From positions 45,883 to 109,882 of IMG/VR virus record IMGVR_UViG_3300020316_000005: DNA of 64,000 bases. The stretch is one strand, 5' to 3'. The notes beneath the pieces are model-generated. The model saw only the letters and a list, made by a program, of their open reading frames with translations. It searched no databases and was not told the origin of the DNA. The DNA comes from a virus (lineage: Duplodnaviria > Caudoviricetes). The stretch's first letter is position 1. Each line of letters begins with the position of its first letter. A program made the position numbers and the translations under genes. Positions 8,130-46,500 of this stretch are shown here, one piece after another.

Positions 8130-8368
8130 TATGAAAGTTGATCGACAATAGGTTTAATGATGTTAATATCTATCCCTGCAAATGGTGGGATTTTGCCTAC
8201 CATTCTAAGCATTCCATCGAGAAAAGCAGCGAACACAATGGCACCTAACCATATCGAAATCAAAGATGCGTTACGGTTGTGTCTTGTGATCGCTTTATCG
8301 ATCATATACTGGGCTTCCTCTTTACTGATATAATGAGGGGGATCCAGTTTTTCAAATCTGTGAGTCAT
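8129..8368 (-). CDS. Small membrane hypothetical protein
   Basis: HNRNASLIS followed by a TM helix; coupled to the petE stop. Confidence 0.7.
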   Translation of the reverse strand: MTHRFEKLDPPHYISKEEAQYMIDKAITRHNRNASLISIWLGAIVFAAFLDGMLRMVGKIPPFAGIDINIIKPIVDQLS

Positions 8369-8691
8369 TACTCTACGTGAACAGTACCGATCATACCCGC
8401 ACCTTTATGGGGGGCACACCAATAAGTATAGTCACCAGCGTCACTAAAGACAACATCAAACTCTTCACCAGGCAGCATTGCTAGTGCCTCGTGATCAAGT
8501 TCTGGATGATCTTCCACAATCACATTGTGAGGTGGAAGCATATTATTAACGAAGTGTACTGATTCACCTGCAGCAATAGTTACCTCTGCTGGTTCAAATA
8601 CAAGGTTACCATCGTAACCCATCTGAACATCTACAGCCCAAGCAGGTGCAGAAAAGAAGAGTGTCGCTAGAAGTGCAAAGAAAAACTTCAT
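8368..8691 (-). CDS. petE: Plastocyanin
   Basis: Signal peptide ending in AWA; PPHNV and YWCAPHKGAGM supply the type-1 Cu ligands. Confidence 0.97.
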   Translation of the reverse strand: MKFFFALLATLFFSAPAWAVDVQMGYDGNLVFEPAEVTIAAGESVHFVNNMLPPHNVIVEDHPELDHEALAMLPGEEFDVVFSDAGDYTYWCAPHKGAGMIGTVHVE

Positions 8692-9486: not shown

Positions 9487-9924
9487 TTAGCACTTCCACT
9501 TTCTAAGTGCGAGTGCTTTACGTGTTGGTTTCCCATTTTCGTCCTTCATTGGACCTTTCATACCACCCATACGGGCACAGAAAGATCTCTTACGAGGACC
9601 ACCTTCGGGTTGAGGTGCCTTCAAATCTGAACCAGGGTTCTCTCTTTCATAGGACTTACGTCCTTTCTCATTCAGACCACCAGAAGGATTCTTTCCTTCT
9701 TTGCGCTGCCAAGCACTTTCCTTGACATCAGCAGCTGCTTTTCCAGAATACTTTCTCTTTGAATTACGTTTCGCTGTATCGTCAATCTCTTTCATTTTAA
9801 GAGCGTGACTCATTTTTCTACGAATAGACGGTCTACCAATAGGAGGATTAGTCCTATCAATAACACGTGCAACCTTTAGGGCTACACCCTCGTCAAATTC
9901 GTGGAACTCAGCGAAAGTCTTCAT
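9487..9924 (-). CDS. Basic protein (DUF6321-like C-terminus) with a T4 capsid-targeting-like N-terminus
   Basis: Starts MKTFAEF; C-terminal module SAWQRKEGKNPSGGLN...SFCARM...ALRKWKC. Confidence 0.7.
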   Translation of the reverse strand: MKTFAEFHEFDEGVALKVARVIDRTNPPIGRPSIRRKMSHALKMKEIDDTAKRNSKRKYSGKAAADVKESAWQRKEGKNPSGGLNEKGRKSYERENPGSDLKAPQPEGGPRKRSFCARMGGMKGPMKDENGKPTRKALALRKWKC

Positions 9925-10064
9925 TGTTCTTGATTATGTTTTGGGTTAGAGGGGCAGTTCTCTTCGTGCTTCTCAATCCAAGTTTTAGGACGCCAATGTC
10001 CTTTGGGAGAAGTCAGACCGCAATACTGACACACATAAGTGCCATCTTCACGTCGTTCAGCCAT
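9921..10064 (-). CDS. Small C2HC zinc-finger-like protein (likely start 10064)
   Basis: CQYC...HEENC pattern; trimmed from the ORF-track frame 9921..10223. Confidence 0.6.
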   Translation of the reverse strand: MAERREDGTYVCQYCGLTSPKGHWRPKTWIEKHEENCPSNPKHNQEQ

Positions 10065-10743
10065 AGTGAAATTTCCTGTCTTTGGTTTTCTTAGGTAGTT
10101 TAGCAGATCGTACCTTCGTGGATGACGTTTCGCCATACCCTTCAGGATGTTTTCCGCCTTTTGCCTTACCGATGGAATCAGACTTAGCCTTACTTCCTTT
10201 CTCGGTATAATGTAGTTTAGCATCTTTTCCAGGCTTTTTGGTAATCACGGATTCTTGACCGTGCTTCCTACCCAGACGACGCATCACTTTACCAAAGCGG
10301 CGTCTCGACATCTTATCAGGTTTGGACGTGTGATATGAAACCTCACGACCAGTTTTACCGTCGGCATACTTGTATTCACCGACGCCTTTCTTGTGTCCGA
10401 TACCGTGCTTCTTGAGATCTTTCTCAAGACTCTTACGCTTTTCACGGTTCTTCTTCTCGTCAGAACCACGGTCAGCAGAAATGTGTCCAGTATCTTTTTT
10501 CTTTGCTTTGTCCATTGCACGTGCGAGACCACCCTCAGCAATGAAGGTTCCGAACGGCATCAAGTAGGACTGAGTTTGCATCATCATATCCGTGCTACCT
10601 CCTCTTTGGACAGTCTTTCTTTGTAGTTGTAATCTTCTCAAGTTGAGCATCAGTTGCCTACGATCAAGCATCTGCTTTTGCTTCTTAACTTGATTACCAG
10701 CACCACCTTTTTGTTGCTGTTGTTCTGGTTGATTTTCCATCAC
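10057..10743 (-). CDS. Putative SAM lyase (T3 SAMase-like) domain protein
   Basis: ISADR...N...L, GEY, REVS, QESV and AKLHY occur in the same order as the remembered T3 SAMase / Svi3-3 motifs. Confidence 0.6.
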   Translation of the reverse strand: MMENQPEQQQQKGGAGNQVKKQKQMLDRRQLMLNLRRLQLQRKTVQRGGSTDMMMQTQSYLMPFGTFIAEGGLARAMDKAKKKDTGHISADRGSDEKKNREKRKSLEKDLKKHGIGHKKGVGEYKYADGKTGREVSYHTSKPDKMSRRRFGKVMRRLGRKHGQESVITKKPGKDAKLHYTEKGSKAKSDSIGKAKGGKHPEGYGETSSTKVRSAKLPKKTKDRKFHYG

Positions 10744-11044: not shown

Positions 11045-11503
11045 CTATTTATCATTTTGTTTCTGTTGTTTCAGAAACTTGGCAAGTTCTGCTGTGCTAC
11101 CAACGAACATAGTGTTGTTAGTGACATTTTGTGCTGCCTTACCTTGTGGACCTTCTTCCAGTTCCTGCATCTTTTTCTGCAGGTCGATAAGTTTGTCCGT
11201 AGTGTCAGCAATATTTTTAATCATATTGCCAGCGACTTCATATGCTCTAGGAGAATCGGACTCTTGTGCTAACTCAAGAATACCGTCAACTGCCTCTTGA
11301 CCCTTTTCGATTAAAGAGTATAAGTTCCCACGAGTATATTCATAGTCTTTGGAAACTTGTTCTGATGTTGCAGCAGGAACTATCTCAGCAGTTTTTTTCT
11401 CTGCTGGTACGATTTGGGTTTCAACATCAAGAGCATCTTCAATACCCTCATACTTTTGAAACTTATTCGTCGTTTCCTGTGACTGGGTTTCTTGAGAGTC
11501 CAT
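11045..11503 (-). CDS. g16: Terminase small subunit gp16 (likely start near 11503)
   Basis: DYEYTRGNLYSLIEKGQEA, PRAYEVAG and FVGSTAEL motifs; follows g15. Confidence 0.93.
   Translation of the reverse strand: MDSQETQSQETTNKFQKYEGIEDALDVETQIVPAEKKTAEIVPAATSEQVSKDYEYTRGNLYSLIEKGQEAVDGILELAQESDSPRAYEVAGNMIKNIADTTDKLIDLQKKMQELEEGPQGKAAQNVTNNTMFVGSTAELAKFLKQQKQNDK
11046..11052 (-). promoter_or_regulatory. Late promoter ATAAATA
   Basis: Overlaps the g16 stop region, about 25 nt upstream of the next ATG. Confidence 0.7.
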
Positions 11504-12260
11504 CTGTAAATTCACTGAATAGTTCATTAAAACCAAAGTTGTCGTCTGGATCTGCCGTAATGGGATCAGGCGTGACGGTATAACGTTGTTCACGAGGTGC
11601 AGTCCTCTTAGAATCCAACGCAGTATCAACGATTGCCTTCTTGATAAGCTTATCGGTTGTATCGGTAACGGGACCGTACAGATAAGTCTTAGCGGTAAAC
11701 GACAGTGTGTAGATCAGAGTTCTACGTGTTGTATAGTCTCCCTCATAATCATCTTCATAAGATACTGAGTTGAGAGACACTGGGAAATCCTTTGATTCTC
11801 CAAGTTCAGGAACTAGGTTGATCGTGATATTGAAGAATGGTTGGAAGAACGGAAGAATCTGCTCTAGAATTTGTAGACCATCATCTTGGTTCTTCGACAT
11901 AATTGCCAGTTCAAAATCCACATTGTATGGAACTGGCATAAAGGATTTCTTAGTTTTACCGTCCGACTGAACGTGACGGAGCACCTGTGTAGGTGAAACT
12001 TTTCTGGTTGCATCGTAAGAGAATCCAGAGATCTCAAACGAGATTCTGGGCAAGGTAATCTGAATAGCGTCTTTAGTTGTCAGATCACCAACCTGTCTCA
12101 AACGAGCAAGGAATTTTTCTTTAGGACCATATGCCAAAGGCACCTTCATAACTTCAGTCTTGGATCCACTTGTTCGTTTGATCTCAATGTTATTGAAGAG
12201 TGTACCGAAAGCAACTACAGTCTTTCTAAAGATTTCATTGTAAGAGTATGTACCTAGCAT
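11463..12260 (-). CDS. g15: Tail sheath stabilizer/terminator gp15
   Basis: FGTLFNNI, KVPLAYGPKEKF, LPRISFE and QILEQILPFFQP motifs. Confidence 0.96.
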   Translation of the reverse strand: MLGTYSYNEIFRKTVVAFGTLFNNIEIKRTSGSKTEVMKVPLAYGPKEKFLARLRQVGDLTTKDAIQITLPRISFEISGFSYDATRKVSPTQVLRHVQSDGKTKKSFMPVPYNVDFELAIMSKNQDDGLQILEQILPFFQPFFNITINLVPELGESKDFPVSLNSVSYEDDYEGDYTTRRTLIYTLSFTAKTYLYGPVTDTTDKLIKKAIVDTALDSKRTAPREQRYTVTPDPITADPDDNFGFNELFSEFTDGLSRNPVTGNDE

Positions 12261-13126
12261 TAGTTAGCGCCTCCGATTTCACCGAAGGGATTGGATTGCG
12301 TAAAGTCAAGAATGGAATCTGCCTCAGTCTCAAATAATTGATTCTGATCGTATTCCGAATTTGTATTATTTAGAGTATTGTAACTGCTAGTGGTCCAGGC
12401 AGCACCAGAAGTCTGACCTGTGAGAGTCTCGGGAATAGTAAAGATGCCTGTTCTGTTATAGACTTGCAGTTGTCTATTTGCACTATCGAACGACTTGACT
12501 TCTGCCTGAACGTTGGATGTGCCACCAACAATAGTTTCACCAACAGTAAATGTACCAGTACCACCTTCTGCAAAGTTGATGGTAATGGTTTGATCCAGAT
12601 TGCGTTCGATAACATCGATTGCTTCGACGCCAGTGTCGAGATCCTCGCCGCTGTACTCGTACAGCTCACACTTGAGACCCCAGACGTGAATCTTGTTTAA
12701 CTGATAGAAAGGTTGTTCGTGCTCAACATATTGAATCTGGAACAACTTACCTGCCAGCGGGAAGTATATAAGGTCACCTTCATTAGGTCTTCCTTCTACA
12801 ACCAGGGTTGTATTGTCATCAACGAGATCTTGGAATCTCTTACGTGCAATGATGAAGTTTACCTGGTCCGAAATACGAACACCAAACTTGGAAAAGAGAT
12901 CTCCATCTCCACCAAATCCCTGAACGTTTTCTAGATACGCTTCAATTTGATATGCTGAGTCAAAAGAAGACAGAGCATCTTCGCCAAATACTTGATCCTC
13001 ACCCACCAAAGTTCTGGGGATATAATAAACGTCTGTCCCGAACATCTTAATTTGTTCGACGACAAGATCCTCCACGAGCTGCTGCTCGCCAGTTGTACCT
13101 TGAGTGAAATAGGAATTAGTAGGCAT
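12260..13126 (-). CDS. g14: Neck protein gp14
   Basis: EQIKMFG, YYIPR, FSKFG, RPNEGDLIYFP and C-terminal NPFG. Confidence 0.96.
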   Translation of the reverse strand: MPTNSYFTQGTTGEQQLVEDLVVEQIKMFGTDVYYIPRTLVGEDQVFGEDALSSFDSAYQIEAYLENVQGFGGDGDLFSKFGVRISDQVNFIIARKRFQDLVDDNTTLVVEGRPNEGDLIYFPLAGKLFQIQYVEHEQPFYQLNKIHVWGLKCELYEYSGEDLDTGVEAIDVIERNLDQTITINFAEGGTGTFTVGETIVGGTSNVQAEVKSFDSANRQLQVYNRTGIFTIPETLTGQTSGAAWTTSSYNTLNNTNSEYDQNQLFETEADSILDFTQSNPFGEIGGAN

Positions 13127-28982: not shown

Positions 28983-28990
28983 TATTTATA
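28983..28990 (-). promoter_or_regulatory. Late promoter TATAAATA for g8
   Basis: Perfect consensus about 22 nt upstream of the ATG. Confidence 0.85.
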
Positions 28991-43500: not shown

Positions 43501-46500
43501 ACCAGTTGCAGATGCAAGTTCCAGCGAAGAACCCTGATAAACAAGTTCACCTTCAAGGAATCTGGAGGTTTCAACGATTGCAGTCGCTTGACCACCGAAC
43601 ACTTCGGTCAACAGAACCTGACGACCTTCACCTTGAGTCAAGAATGTGATGAAAGAACCAGATTCTGCATCAAGTTTGGTCAGTGCAATACGAAGTTGGT
43701 CGGATTCCAAAGAGTTTTGCTCACCAGCGATTGCATAGTAAGTCTGATTAGGGTTCAAGCTAACCAAACCTGCAGAACTCGGTTTCGGCAAAATACCAAC
43801 CGTAGAACCAAGATCTTCTGCTCTCAACTGCACTTCTGCACCAGTTGTGATGCCGTGCGGGAAGTTGAACTGCAAATAACCCAAGTCAACGTTGACAACG
43901 TAGTTAAATTCAGACTTCAGGGTAACAGTCGGTTCGGAAGAATAACCAGAACCAGGGTTTTTGATGATAACTTCAGAAAGTCTGTTGTTCTTGACGATTG
44001 CTTCTGCTTCTGCACCAGATCCACCGCCACCACTGATAACCACAGCAGGAACGGAGGTGTAACCAGAACCAGGATCGGTGATCTTGATTTCTGACAGAAT
44101 AGCGGTATTAAACAGTTGAAGGTTGACAGGGAAAGTAATTTCGGGTCTCAGAGTATAGTCGTGAGAATAACCGAAACCAAATTCGTTGTTCTTCAGCTTC
44201 TTAATCTTACCGATGCTCTTACCTTGCAGGAACACCGATGCACCCGAACCTTCATCAGGAATCACAACTTCAAGTTGTGCACCAGAACCTGCAAGCAGGG
44301 GTCCAAGGATGCCAGGAATAGCATCAACGTCGATAGATGCAGTTTTATATCCTTTACCAGCAGACGTGAGAGTGACATCGGTGATAACACCAGTGAAATC
44401 TCCATCATCCTGAACTGTAATGTTACAACTTGCACCTTCACCATCACCAGTAATAGGTACGTTGTAATAAATACCGTTCACATATTCAGTACCACCGTTG
44501 AGAATACGAACTTTTTCGATCTCTCTGTTCGATGCGATGTCTGTAACGATGGGAAGTTTCTGGTAGAAACCACCTGGGTTGACAAGCTTGATGCTTGCAA
44601 TAGGTCCAATCGCTTTTGGAGAGGTTGTAGAATAGAGGGAACGTGGGTTTCCAAACTCATTATTACCAACGGGAGCGATAGTCTTCTCAGGTTCAACGAG
44701 AAGTGGGAAATCGAAGGTAGTTCCTTGAGTTCCAGTTGCAGAAACTCTAAATCTACCAGAATAAGGACTCTGGATAACGTCAATAAAGGATCCTTCACCA
44801 ACAGGAGAGTCTGCTCCAGTTCTAGATGGATCAAAATAGTATGAAATGTTGGTAACAGAGTCTGTAACGATGAATTTAACCAACGGAGTAGGCGAATCAT
44901 CGTCAGTTAGACCAGGTGTACCCTCTCTAATGATGTTAATAAACGGATATTCCAGTTTGTACTGATTATCCTTAGAGAAAGACAGATAATAACCGAGGTT
45001 TGATGGATCATCCAGGTCAAAAATGTACTGGTGATAGCGAACAAACAGCAGTTTGGGGTGCTTGGCGTAGATATTGACGTTGGAAACAGAAGAACCTGTG
45101 CCTGAGAATGTGGGATCCTGAACAGCAGTTGCTCTCAAACGGAATGTAAACTCTCTAGAACTAAAGACTTCTTCAACAAAGAAGGATCCGTTGTAGTCAT
45201 TAGTGGCAAATCTCTCTGTAAAGATGATTTCATTTGCCTCAAAGTTGTGTCTGCTGTTAGCAGAGCAGTATACAAGGTCCGTATTTGCAAGAGCAGAAGC
45301 AGGAATAACGTCTTTGTCAAGTGTAGCAATCAAAGAGAACTTCTTGACACCGATCAATCCAGCAAATGTAGCAATCTTGCCAGTTGCATCAACAGTAAAT
45401 TGCAGGTTGACTGCATCTGCGTCAATGGTGTCGCCCTTAATAAAGGTGGAATCACCATAGATTTCTTCAATCTTAATAGTATAATCTTCTGCAGCAAATG
45501 CTCTCCACGAAGTAAACGCTCCCAGAGTGCTGCCATTGTAAGCAGTATTTGCCAGATCAACGTCGAAACTGCCAGAAACACTGGTGAAAGACCAGTTGAC
45601 ATTACCATCGGTCACAATACCAGTGGTGTGCTCTGGTTCCAAAGGACCAGAAACGCCTGTAGAAGTTGCAGTGTAAACCTTACCAGCATTGTAAACAACA
45701 TCACCAACAGTATATGAGAAGTTCTCAACCCATTGAGGTGTTGTAGTTTCAACAGTGAAGTTACGATCAAGAGTATTGATGTCACCTGCCGTTGACTTCA
45801 GGAGTTTTGTGGTGTCAAAGTTACCAATAATCTTACCGATCTTTGCATAGTTTGTTCCAGCTTCAACGATTGTTCCATATGCAGAAACAACATCGCTTCC
45901 ACCAATCACAGAATACTGCTGTAGGATAGAACCTTTAGTGAAAGATGCAGGTTGATTGAATGTAAGCGTCTTAACAAGGTCAATACTGTTATACTTTGCA
46001 TCACGCAAGTAGAACTTGGGAATGACAGTTGCAGAAAGTAGAAGCTTCGTACCACCCTGTGTAGGAATAGTTGCAGTTCTCTCACTATACTTCTCTGAAG
46101 TATCTGTAAATGTGTAGATACCAGGAACGTGAGTGGAGGTTACATCAGAATAATCAAGAATCTGAATACCTGCAGGACCAATAACCCAAGGATTGATAGT
46201 AACGGGTTGGGTATTAAACGTATAACCACTCTCAGCGGCGGTTACAAGAGTGTGACCTGTCTCAACATCATCAAGGTTAAAGGTGCCAAGTTTCGTCTTG
46301 TCCTTATCAATCTTGTAGAGGAATGCTTGAGTTGCGCTGTTTGTACCAGCAACAACTGCAGCGGTAAATGAATCGTTATATTTGAATGCTGGGGTGACAA
46401 CAAAGTTATCAACCCATCCCATCCAGGTATTGGTGGAATTCGGTGTGGATACAGGTCCAAGGGTTGCATCCTTAAGATTGACATCAACAGTTGTGCTCAA

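Follow-up and report, generated by a model that had tools for sequence, protein, structure and literature searches.

S-adenosyl-L-methionine (SAM) lyases are trimers with active sites at the subunit interfaces, and they are known as enzymes that are expressed early and counter restriction and BREX. Other anti-restriction proteins travel in the phage head, as in the case of IPI*, an anti-restriction cargo of phage T4, and of the Dar proteins of phage P1, which are packaged in the head. Here we describe a gene that has features in common with all of these systems. It lies in a window of 64,000 nucleotides (nt), by which we mean the whole stretch of DNA analysed, positions 45,883 to 109,882 of the IMG/VR record IMGVR_UViG_3300020316_000005. 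The record is 109.9 kb long and belongs to a T4-like cyanomyovirus, with an estimated completeness of 62%. The gene is an open reading frame (ORF) at 10057-10743 on the minus strand, located in the late g13-g14-g15-g16 module, between g16 and g17, and it encodes a domain of the SAM-lyase family preceded by a peptide that resembles the capsid-targeting sequence of T4.

The closest described enzymes are T3 SAMase and Svi3-3 (PF23780; structures 8BB1, 7OCK, 6ZM9 and 6ZNB). The fold and the order of the ligand residues are common to these and to the window protein, and the presumed reaction and the anti-restriction or anti-BREX rationale are the same. T3 SAMase, however, is the first of the early proteins to appear in an infected cell and lacks a targeting peptide, whereas the window gene is in a late structural operon and its domain follows a T4-type tag-like peptide. 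The window enzyme is also far more basic than the T3 and Svi3-3 enzymes, and its relatives often carry it as the C-terminal part of proteins of 400-1000 amino acids (aa). With the T4 proteins IPI, IPII, IPIII and Alt it has in common an aromatic residue at position 4 of the tag, F at position 7, I or L at position 8 and E at position 10 followed by a small residue, together with basicity and a Peptidase_S77 protease. The T4 tag is N-terminal while that of the window protein is internal, and the window cargo, predicted as such from its sequence, is an enzyme of a different family. Because the N-terminal position is not found here, we describe the protein as one that would work like a T4 capsid-targeted cargo, not as a member of that class. 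The Dar proteins of P1 embody the same concept of head-carried anti-restriction proteins injected with the DNA, but they are unrelated to SAM lyase, use another loading route and deplete no metabolite.

The nearest precedent is gp6 of cyanophage S-CREM2 (OR473000), annotated as "S-adenosyl-L-methionine hydrolase (virion protein)", a homologue with a tag-like start that was found in purified virions with 19 peptides (PMC10665884). The gp6 gene differs from the window gene in being part of an early-region cluster beside a dam methylase, in having the peptide at the true N-terminus, and in carrying a 240-aa C-terminal extension. In 2023 the S-CREM2 authors proposed that the SAM hydrolase is delivered into the host against restriction-modification; their paper draws no connection between gp6 and either the T4 capsid-targeting sequence or gp21 (PMC10665884). 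In our literature search this was the only paper that ties a SAM hydrolase to virions; the same search found no link of the capsid-targeting sequence to cyanophages, and no mention of DUF6321 or PF23780. The enzyme family, covered by Pfam, and the idea of a virion-carried cyanophage SAM hydrolase are therefore already known, and it is the link to the T4 capsid-targeting/gp21 system, the portability of the peptide among cyanophage cargo and the fused-precursor forms that appear to be unreported. Every cyanophage copy of the gene in GenBank other than S-CREM2 gp6 is labelled "hypothetical", and these include the copies carried by the well-studied phages P-SSM2, P-SSM4, P-SSM7, S-SSM5, P-RSM4, S-TIM4 and P-TIM40.

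The mechanism we propose is the following. A basic SAM lyase would be made late, from the g16-g17 structural operon, and its precursor would be drawn into the assembling prohead core via the tag-like peptide. The gp21 protease would then cut after Glu70 (I-A-E/G; here and below a slash marks a known or predicted cut), which would leave a 158-aa mature enzyme in the head with the DNA. In the next infection the enzyme would be ejected into the cell ahead of any phage gene expression, where it would cleave SAM to methylthioadenosine and homoserine lactone and deprive SAM-dependent defences, such as type I restriction-modification and BREX, of SAM. We consider this combined explanation, a capsid-tagged, packaged and injected SAM lyase, to be rather probable, and packaging through the tag-like peptide and gp21, taken by itself, slightly more probable than the whole. 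If true, a capsid-loaded SAM lyase would act before any phage transcription, and it would be kept from the phage's own SAM-dependent Dam methylase in late infection. Such an enzyme may bear on how infections of Prochlorococcus and Synechococcus end, which outnumber all other marine phototrophs.

Family membership, fold and ligand residues

Residue numbers in the window protein are counted from the GTG codon at 10743, and are one higher than if counted from the ATG codon at 10740. The features of the ORF are these:

10057-10743, minus strand: candidate SAM-lyase ORF, 228 aa from GTG 10743 or 227 aa from ATG 10740
10564-10740, minus strand: N-terminal extension, residues 2-60, a basic predicted helix (..RRQLMLNLRRLQLQRK..) and then TDMMMQT
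10534-10563, minus strand: LMPFGTFIAE, residues 61-70, similar to the T4 capsid-targeting sequence, with a predicted gp21 cut after E70 (I-A-E/G)
10060-10533, minus strand: predicted mature SAM lyase, residues 71-228, 158 aa, isoelectric point (pI) 10.3, 30% K+R
10372-10380, minus strand: G122-E-Y124, equivalent to Svi3-3 Gly56 and Tyr58; G and Y invariant in 55 sequences
10336-10344, minus strand: E134-V-S136, equivalent to Svi3-3 Glu69 and Ser71; E invariant and S nearly invariant in 55 sequences
10249-10257, minus strand: Q163-E164-S165, equivalent to Svi3-3 Gln104-Glu105-Ser106; Q and E invariant and S nearly so in 55 sequences

Residues 88-195 of the window protein match PF23780 (S-AdoMet_lyase) with 30.4 bits (E = 4e-7), where the curated gathering cut-off is 28 bits. 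The same model matches 51 of the 55 aligned relatives, the best of them at 6e-10, and S-CREM2 gp6 reaches 70 bits; gp6 and the window protein share 38% identity across 140 aa (E = 9e-14). When 1.84 billion cluster representatives are searched, 298 family members are recovered at E <= 1e-3.

All structures were modelled as single chains. In the AlphaFold model obtained from the 55-sequence alignment, residues 82-192 have a predicted local distance difference test (pLDDT) score of about 85-93. When the full-length model is compared with the PDB using Foldseek, the best matches are Svi3-3 (6ZNB, 6ZM9; E = 2e-4) and the T3 SAM lyase (7OCK, 8BB1). Aligned with VIA-align, the model gives Z = 10.9 to 8BB1_E (root-mean-square deviation of 2.3 A over 102 residues), Z = 10.9 to 7OCK_A and Z = 9.0 to 6ZNB, and generic ferredoxin-like folds reach Z of about 8.7 or less, a modest margin below the SAM lyases. 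For a model of the mature domain alone, the top seven Foldseek matches are all SAM lyases, and the template-modelling (TM) scores to 8BB1_E are 0.62/0.67 over 156 columns, which indicates that the conserved C-terminal tail belongs to the shared fold. The sequence identity to the T3 and Svi3-3 enzymes is 12-18%. The tail itself, residues 192-228 (10060-10170, minus strand), is highly conserved, with the pattern G..GKHP.GYGET..T..R..KLP......HYG; it has low pLDDT in the full-length model, and in the mature-domain model it aligns with the C-terminal part of the T3 SAM lyase.

The GxY, ExS and QES motifs keep their Svi3-3 order at similar spacing, on the strands of a predicted beta-hairpin and on the strand that follows. 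In Svi3-3, Gly56 packs on the ribose, Tyr58 makes a cation-pi contact to the sulfonium, and Gln104-Glu105-Ser106 bind the methionine moiety (PMC7877911). Active SAM lyases share Gly56, Tyr58, Glu69 and Gln104; Ser71, Glu105 and Ser106 likewise contact SAM, and the E69Q change lowers the activity of Svi3-3 about 4500-fold (PMC7877911). In T3 gene 0.3, translated from NC_003298, the motifs GCY, EEKT, EQDCV and AGLVYAKG follow one another just as GEY, REVS, GQESV and AKLHYTEKG do in the window protein.

An initial annotation of the window, made by a model from the sequence alone, had called this ORF a putative SAM lyase on the strength of such strings. GEY (10372-10380), QESV (10246-10257) and MPFGTFIAE (10534-10560) are where it placed them, and the T3 motifs GCY, EEKT, EQDCV and AGLVYAKG that it cited are all present in T3 gene 0.3. 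REVSY is present as well but starts at 10347, and the interval 10342-47 reported for it covers only RE. The call itself holds up, with a PF23780 match above threshold, a T3/Svi3-3-like fold and conserved SAM-binding residues, and the comparison it had suggested with the structures of T3 SAMase and Svi3-3 returned both as the best PDB matches of the AlphaFold model. The likeness to SAM lyases, in the Pfam match, the conserved motifs and the first-ranked fold match, exceeds chance, and we have high confidence that the window protein is a member of the PF23780 SAM-lyase family.

The capsid-targeting-like peptide and its carriers

In T4, a 10-residue peptide described in the literature directs proteins into the prohead and is then removed by gp21. 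Mutants of this tag assign targeting to residues 4 and 7 and processing to residues 8 and 10 (PMC9026906). The T4 proteins IPII and IPIII begin with MKTYQEFIAE/A, and IPI begins with MKTFKEF...ITE/A (NC_000866). In the window protein, L61-M-P-F64-G-T-F67-I68-A-E70/G71 has F, F, I and E at the determinant positions 4, 7, 8 and 10. The initial annotation had quoted the T4 tag correctly, as ipII and ipIII and the literature agree, and its proposal of a capsid-targeting-like peptide stands as regards the four determinants; the peptide is internal, at residues 61-70 of 228, and not at the N-terminus. E70 and G71 are nearly invariant among the 55 aligned relatives, and I-A-E70 is the sole (L/I)xE site in the ORF. 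The peptide falls outside the Pfam model and in the low-pLDDT, unfolded part of the AlphaFold model. The domain that follows is basic like the T4 internal proteins, with a pI of 10.3 compared with 8.9-9.5.

Across the family, 114 unique junctions give the logo (M/T)K(S/T)F.(E/Q)F(L/I)AE, and the members closest to T4 agree with its tag in 8 of 10 positions. Among the 120 near relatives, many of the short proteins, of 165-180 aa, start at MKTFKQFIAE/GG, MKSFKQFIAE/GN or MLSFKEFIAE/GG. The junction Glu is within the first 21 residues in 54 of 135 called genes, and the strict motif stands at the start of 25 of the 54 distant short members. At the level of the family, these patterns support homology of the peptide before the SAM-lyase domain to the T4 capsid-targeting sequence.

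Another architecture prevails among the 80 related viral contigs, most of which encode basic proteins of 400-1040 aa that end in the SAM-lyase domain and carry DUF3008, DUF6321-like and serine-rich segments beside it. The peptide is then found exactly at the SAM-lyase junction, as in ..QKTYREFIAE/GN and ..TLSFSAFLAE/GN. The strict motif occurs 54 times in long ORFs where shuffled sequences give 0.7, a count taken over proteins that are homologous and not independent. It is present once per long ORF, 23 residues before GHISAD, with the exceptions of L079, which has two copies, the second near the N-terminus, and of L090 and L091, which have three that flank the SAM lyase and precede DUF6321. 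A peptide so deep inside a fusion could act only post-translationally there, as a cleavage site or as a linker, and it can most simply be read as a gp21 cleavage site that would free the SAM lyase. We also considered whether the fused relatives could be polyproteins in which a tag-like site marks every module boundary, a model that finds weak support, with the strict motif confined to one site per long ORF outside L079, L090 and L091. Alternative architectures are seen in L028, L032 and L090, in some of which the SAM lyase is the first or middle module, followed by a Cys-rich module (..KDACYHKVKSRYKVWPSAYASG..), an RRQLxLNRQKLQLQ helix linker and DUF6321.

The peptide is also found on unrelated proteins. 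The DUF6321 gene that ends the same run of genes in the window (9487-9924, minus strand) begins with a second tag-like peptide, MKTFAEFHEFDE/G. No other ORF of the 110-kb record has the motif at its start, and we rejected the idea that the proteins of this phage generally begin in this way. Of 120 DUF6321 relatives, at least 35 begin with peptides of the tag-like type, such as MISFKEYLNE, MKTYTEFVAE and MKLFKEFISE, and in other phages DUF6321 is fused to the SAM lyase. The DUF6321 protein is a probable second capsid cargo.

S-CREM2 offers a comparison with a virion proteome, and we searched its complete record for ORFs that have the motif close to their start. Tag-like starts are found in ORF6, the SAM lyase (MKDFDSFLEE), in the small ORF13 (MKDLHSFLTE), in the ORF14 kinase (VKRFDAFLTE) and in the ORF154 cytidylyltransferase (MKNFSSFLTE), and ORF12, a large nuclease, has ..LRFASFMAE/A about 20 residues in. 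For ORF12, 13, 14 and 154 (loci L015 and L016) the consensus is MK.F..FL.E, with L in place of the first F in ORF13. All five tagged proteins are in the published virion proteome, where 52 of the 221 ORFs are represented overall (PMC10665884); the chance of finding five out of five is about 7 in 10,000. The five include four of the six "non-structural" virion proteins that puzzled the S-CREM2 authors (PMC10665884), and the tag offers a sequence-based account that explains them. To judge from this distribution, the peptide is transferable between unrelated cyanophage cargo, as is expected of a targeting signal.

The protease that would process the tag is encoded in the same genome. A gp21 protease (Peptidase_S77, PF03420) is found just outside the window (G000:C1:41482-41928) with 123 bits, and the gp23 major capsid protein has VLTE/A near residue 52, where T4-like capsid proteins are cut.

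More broadly, and more tentatively, the T4 capsid-targeting/gp21 system may be conserved over the deep divide that separates coliphage T4 from marine cyanomyoviruses and may define a hypervariable set of injected effector cargo, made up of SAM lyase, DUF6321, DUF3008 modules, kinases, cytidylyltransferases and nucleases, which would be encoded either by separate tagged genes, as in the window, or as fused precursors cut at a tag-like junction. We hold this generalization to be a serious possibility that falls somewhat short of an even chance. The conserved tag would provide a simple sequence rule for the injected proteins of T4-like marine phages; if the generalization is true, the injected repertoire of uncultured marine phages could be predicted from the peptide, by sequence alone. 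It also suggests that the T4 packaging tag could serve in cyanophage engineering.

Weighing a packaged enzyme against other readings

Several observations weigh against a packaged SAM lyase. The PF23780 score is only just over the cut-off. Sequence searches of PDB chains with the window protein and with the 55-sequence profile found no SAM lyase, and hhalign of that profile with T3 gp0.3 gave no match; with these pure sequence searches empty, the link to the solved SAM lyases rests on Pfam, fold and motifs together. The tag-like peptide is 60 residues from the N-terminus of the window protein, and the signal characterised by experiment in T4 is an N-terminal one. Most relatives carry the peptide 250-900 residues into a fusion, and its first codon is usually no start codon. 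The S-CREM2 authors cautioned that the non-structural proteins in their virions might be contaminants (PMC10665884). In phage S-SZBM1, the homologue SSZBM1_194 (707 aa) is absent from the 30 proteins detected in virions, a weak negative since the mature domain has just four tryptic peptides of 7 or more residues. Finally, the phage has its own SAM-dependent Dam-like methylase, and unrestrained SAM depletion would harm the phage. Sequestering the enzyme in proheads and delivering a limited dose in the next infection would reconcile a SAM lyase with that methylase, and S-CREM2 has the same pairing, with the dam methylase two genes from gp6. The methylase of the window phage is a Dam-like D12 N6-adenine DNA methyltransferase (115 bits), encoded outside the window at G000:C1:21677-22408 on the minus strand.

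Part of this evidence would suit an active SAM lyase that is not packaged and stays in the cytoplasm of the producing cell, with the FxxFIxE peptide serving only as a linker or N-terminal element that this family branch conserves. The peptide is indeed internal in the window protein and in most relatives, its fixed distance of 23 residues to GHISAD and its essentially single occurrence per long ORF suggest that it is co-inherited with the domain, and the S-SZBM1 homologue is missing from the detected virion proteins. We consider this reading unlikely, as the same peptide is carried by DUF6321 and by the kinase, cytidylyltransferase and nuclease of S-CREM2 virions, it agrees with the T4 tag in as many as 8 of 10 positions, and it is outside both the confident fold core and the Pfam model. 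The 19 peptides of gp6 recovered from virions also speak for packaging, and SAM destruction in the cytoplasm late in infection would conflict with the phage's own Dam-like methylase. A packaged protein could instead be a basic head protein that has the SAM-lyase fold but is non-catalytic or has some other role, in DNA condensation, in binding and inhibition of the host SAM synthetase, as is the case with T3 SAMase, or in the cleavage of a SAM derivative such as SAM-AMP. Its 30% K+R and pI of 10.3 are like those of DNA-associated T4 internal proteins, the T3 SAM lyase was solved in complex with the SAM synthetase MetK (7OCK, 8BB1), SAM-AMP lyases have the same fold (9GAD, Z = 6.5), and there is a conserved C-terminal tail (residues 192-228) to which no role is assigned. 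We find this the least probable of the readings considered here, given that true SAM lyases score clearly above SAM-AMP lyases and that the methionine- and ribose-binding residues of Svi3-3 are invariant or nearly so, which is unexpected for a purely structural protein.

The remaining alternative, which we judge improbable, concerns the gene model and would bring the tag near the true N-terminus. The product would start at M53, TTG61 or ATG62, and the 52-60 codons upstream would be separate or dispensable. AGGAGGT is found 9 nt upstream of the ATG of M53, tag positions 1-2 are encoded by TTG-ATG, the peptide forms the very start of many relatives, and other gene callers give both 227-aa and 176-aa forms of the ORF, none of them named. 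The GGAGG is not conserved in the relatives L024 and L027, however, the other genes of the operon do without Shine-Dalgarno sequences, and for these reasons we set aside M53 as the main model; in the fused relatives, moreover, a start codon is usually missing from tag position 1. The upstream segment, with a helix at residues 14-45 in the AlphaFold model, is in frame and without a stop, and it is a conserved module that recurs as a linker before DUF6321 in L028 and L032, a reuse that marks it as true coding sequence. The initial annotation had drawn the gene from GTG 10743. The ORF is real, but its start is probably at ATG 10740, which would yield 227 aa, since that codon overlaps the upstream stop codon in TGATG. 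We favour the longer product and a probably packaged SAM lyase behind an internal tag; the proposal of the initial annotation, a late-made and head-packaged SAM lyase injected with the DNA, is on the whole supported.

Probable late expression and neighbouring genes

The genes around the SAM-lyase ORF, all on the same strand, are listed here in the direction of transcription, with the late-promoter-like element:

12260-13126, minus strand: g14 neck protein, by family assignment
11463-12260, minus strand: g15, by family assignment
11045-11629, minus strand: g16 small terminase, by family assignment
11046-11053, minus strand: late-promoter-like GATAAATA, which fits the cyanomyovirus consensus and overlaps the g16 stop codon
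10740-11021, minus strand: 93-aa ORF that heads the coupled run, 79% identical to SSZBM1_195 (E = 4e-45)
9921-10064, minus strand: zinc-ribbon ORF, 47 aa (MAERREDGTYVCQYCG..), which overlaps both neighbours and has only weak zinc-ribbon Pfam matches
9487-9924, minus strand: DUF6321 protein, 145 aa (PF19846, E = 1e-25)
8368-8691, minus strand: plastocyanin-like ORF, with a signal peptide and a copper-site motif

The ends of the last four genes of the run, namely the 93-aa ORF, the SAM-lyase ORF, the zinc-ribbon ORF and the DUF6321 gene, overlap (TGATG, ATGGCTGA and ATGA), which points to a translationally coupled run. The late-promoter consensus of cyanomyoviruses is NATAAATA (PMC2984593). The window element GATAAATA is 24 nt upstream of ATG 11021, the first ATG of the coupled run, and it is conserved in S-SZBM1. 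Two other motif sites, at 28989 and 32586 on the minus strand, are 22-24 nt before ORFs of 511 and 560 aa. ATAAATA is not enriched in the window (8 found, 7.4 expected), and we discarded enrichment as evidence for late promoters; it is the spacing of 22-24 nt to three ATG codons that is suggestive. The late promoter that the initial annotation had placed at 11046 is plausible on this basis: ATAAATA is present at 11046-11052 on the minus strand, 24 nt upstream of ATG 11021, and only its overall count in the window is at chance. The location inside the late structural module is a stronger argument for late expression of the SAM-lyase gene than the motif.

The neighbouring ORFs show some further features. 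The homologue of the 93-aa ORF, SSZBM1_195, ranks third by exponentially modified protein abundance index (emPAI) in the S-SZBM1 virion proteome, as a small unannotated virion protein. The zinc-ribbon ORF, of the CxxC...HxxxC type, is wedged between the SAM-lyase and DUF6321 genes. In S-SZBM1, the SAM-lyase gene is followed by a 45-aa ORF, SSZBM1_193, which is placed like the zinc-ribbon ORF, a comparison of position alone. The plastocyanin-like ORF lies just downstream of the run, at the edge of the g16-g17 auxiliary-gene island.

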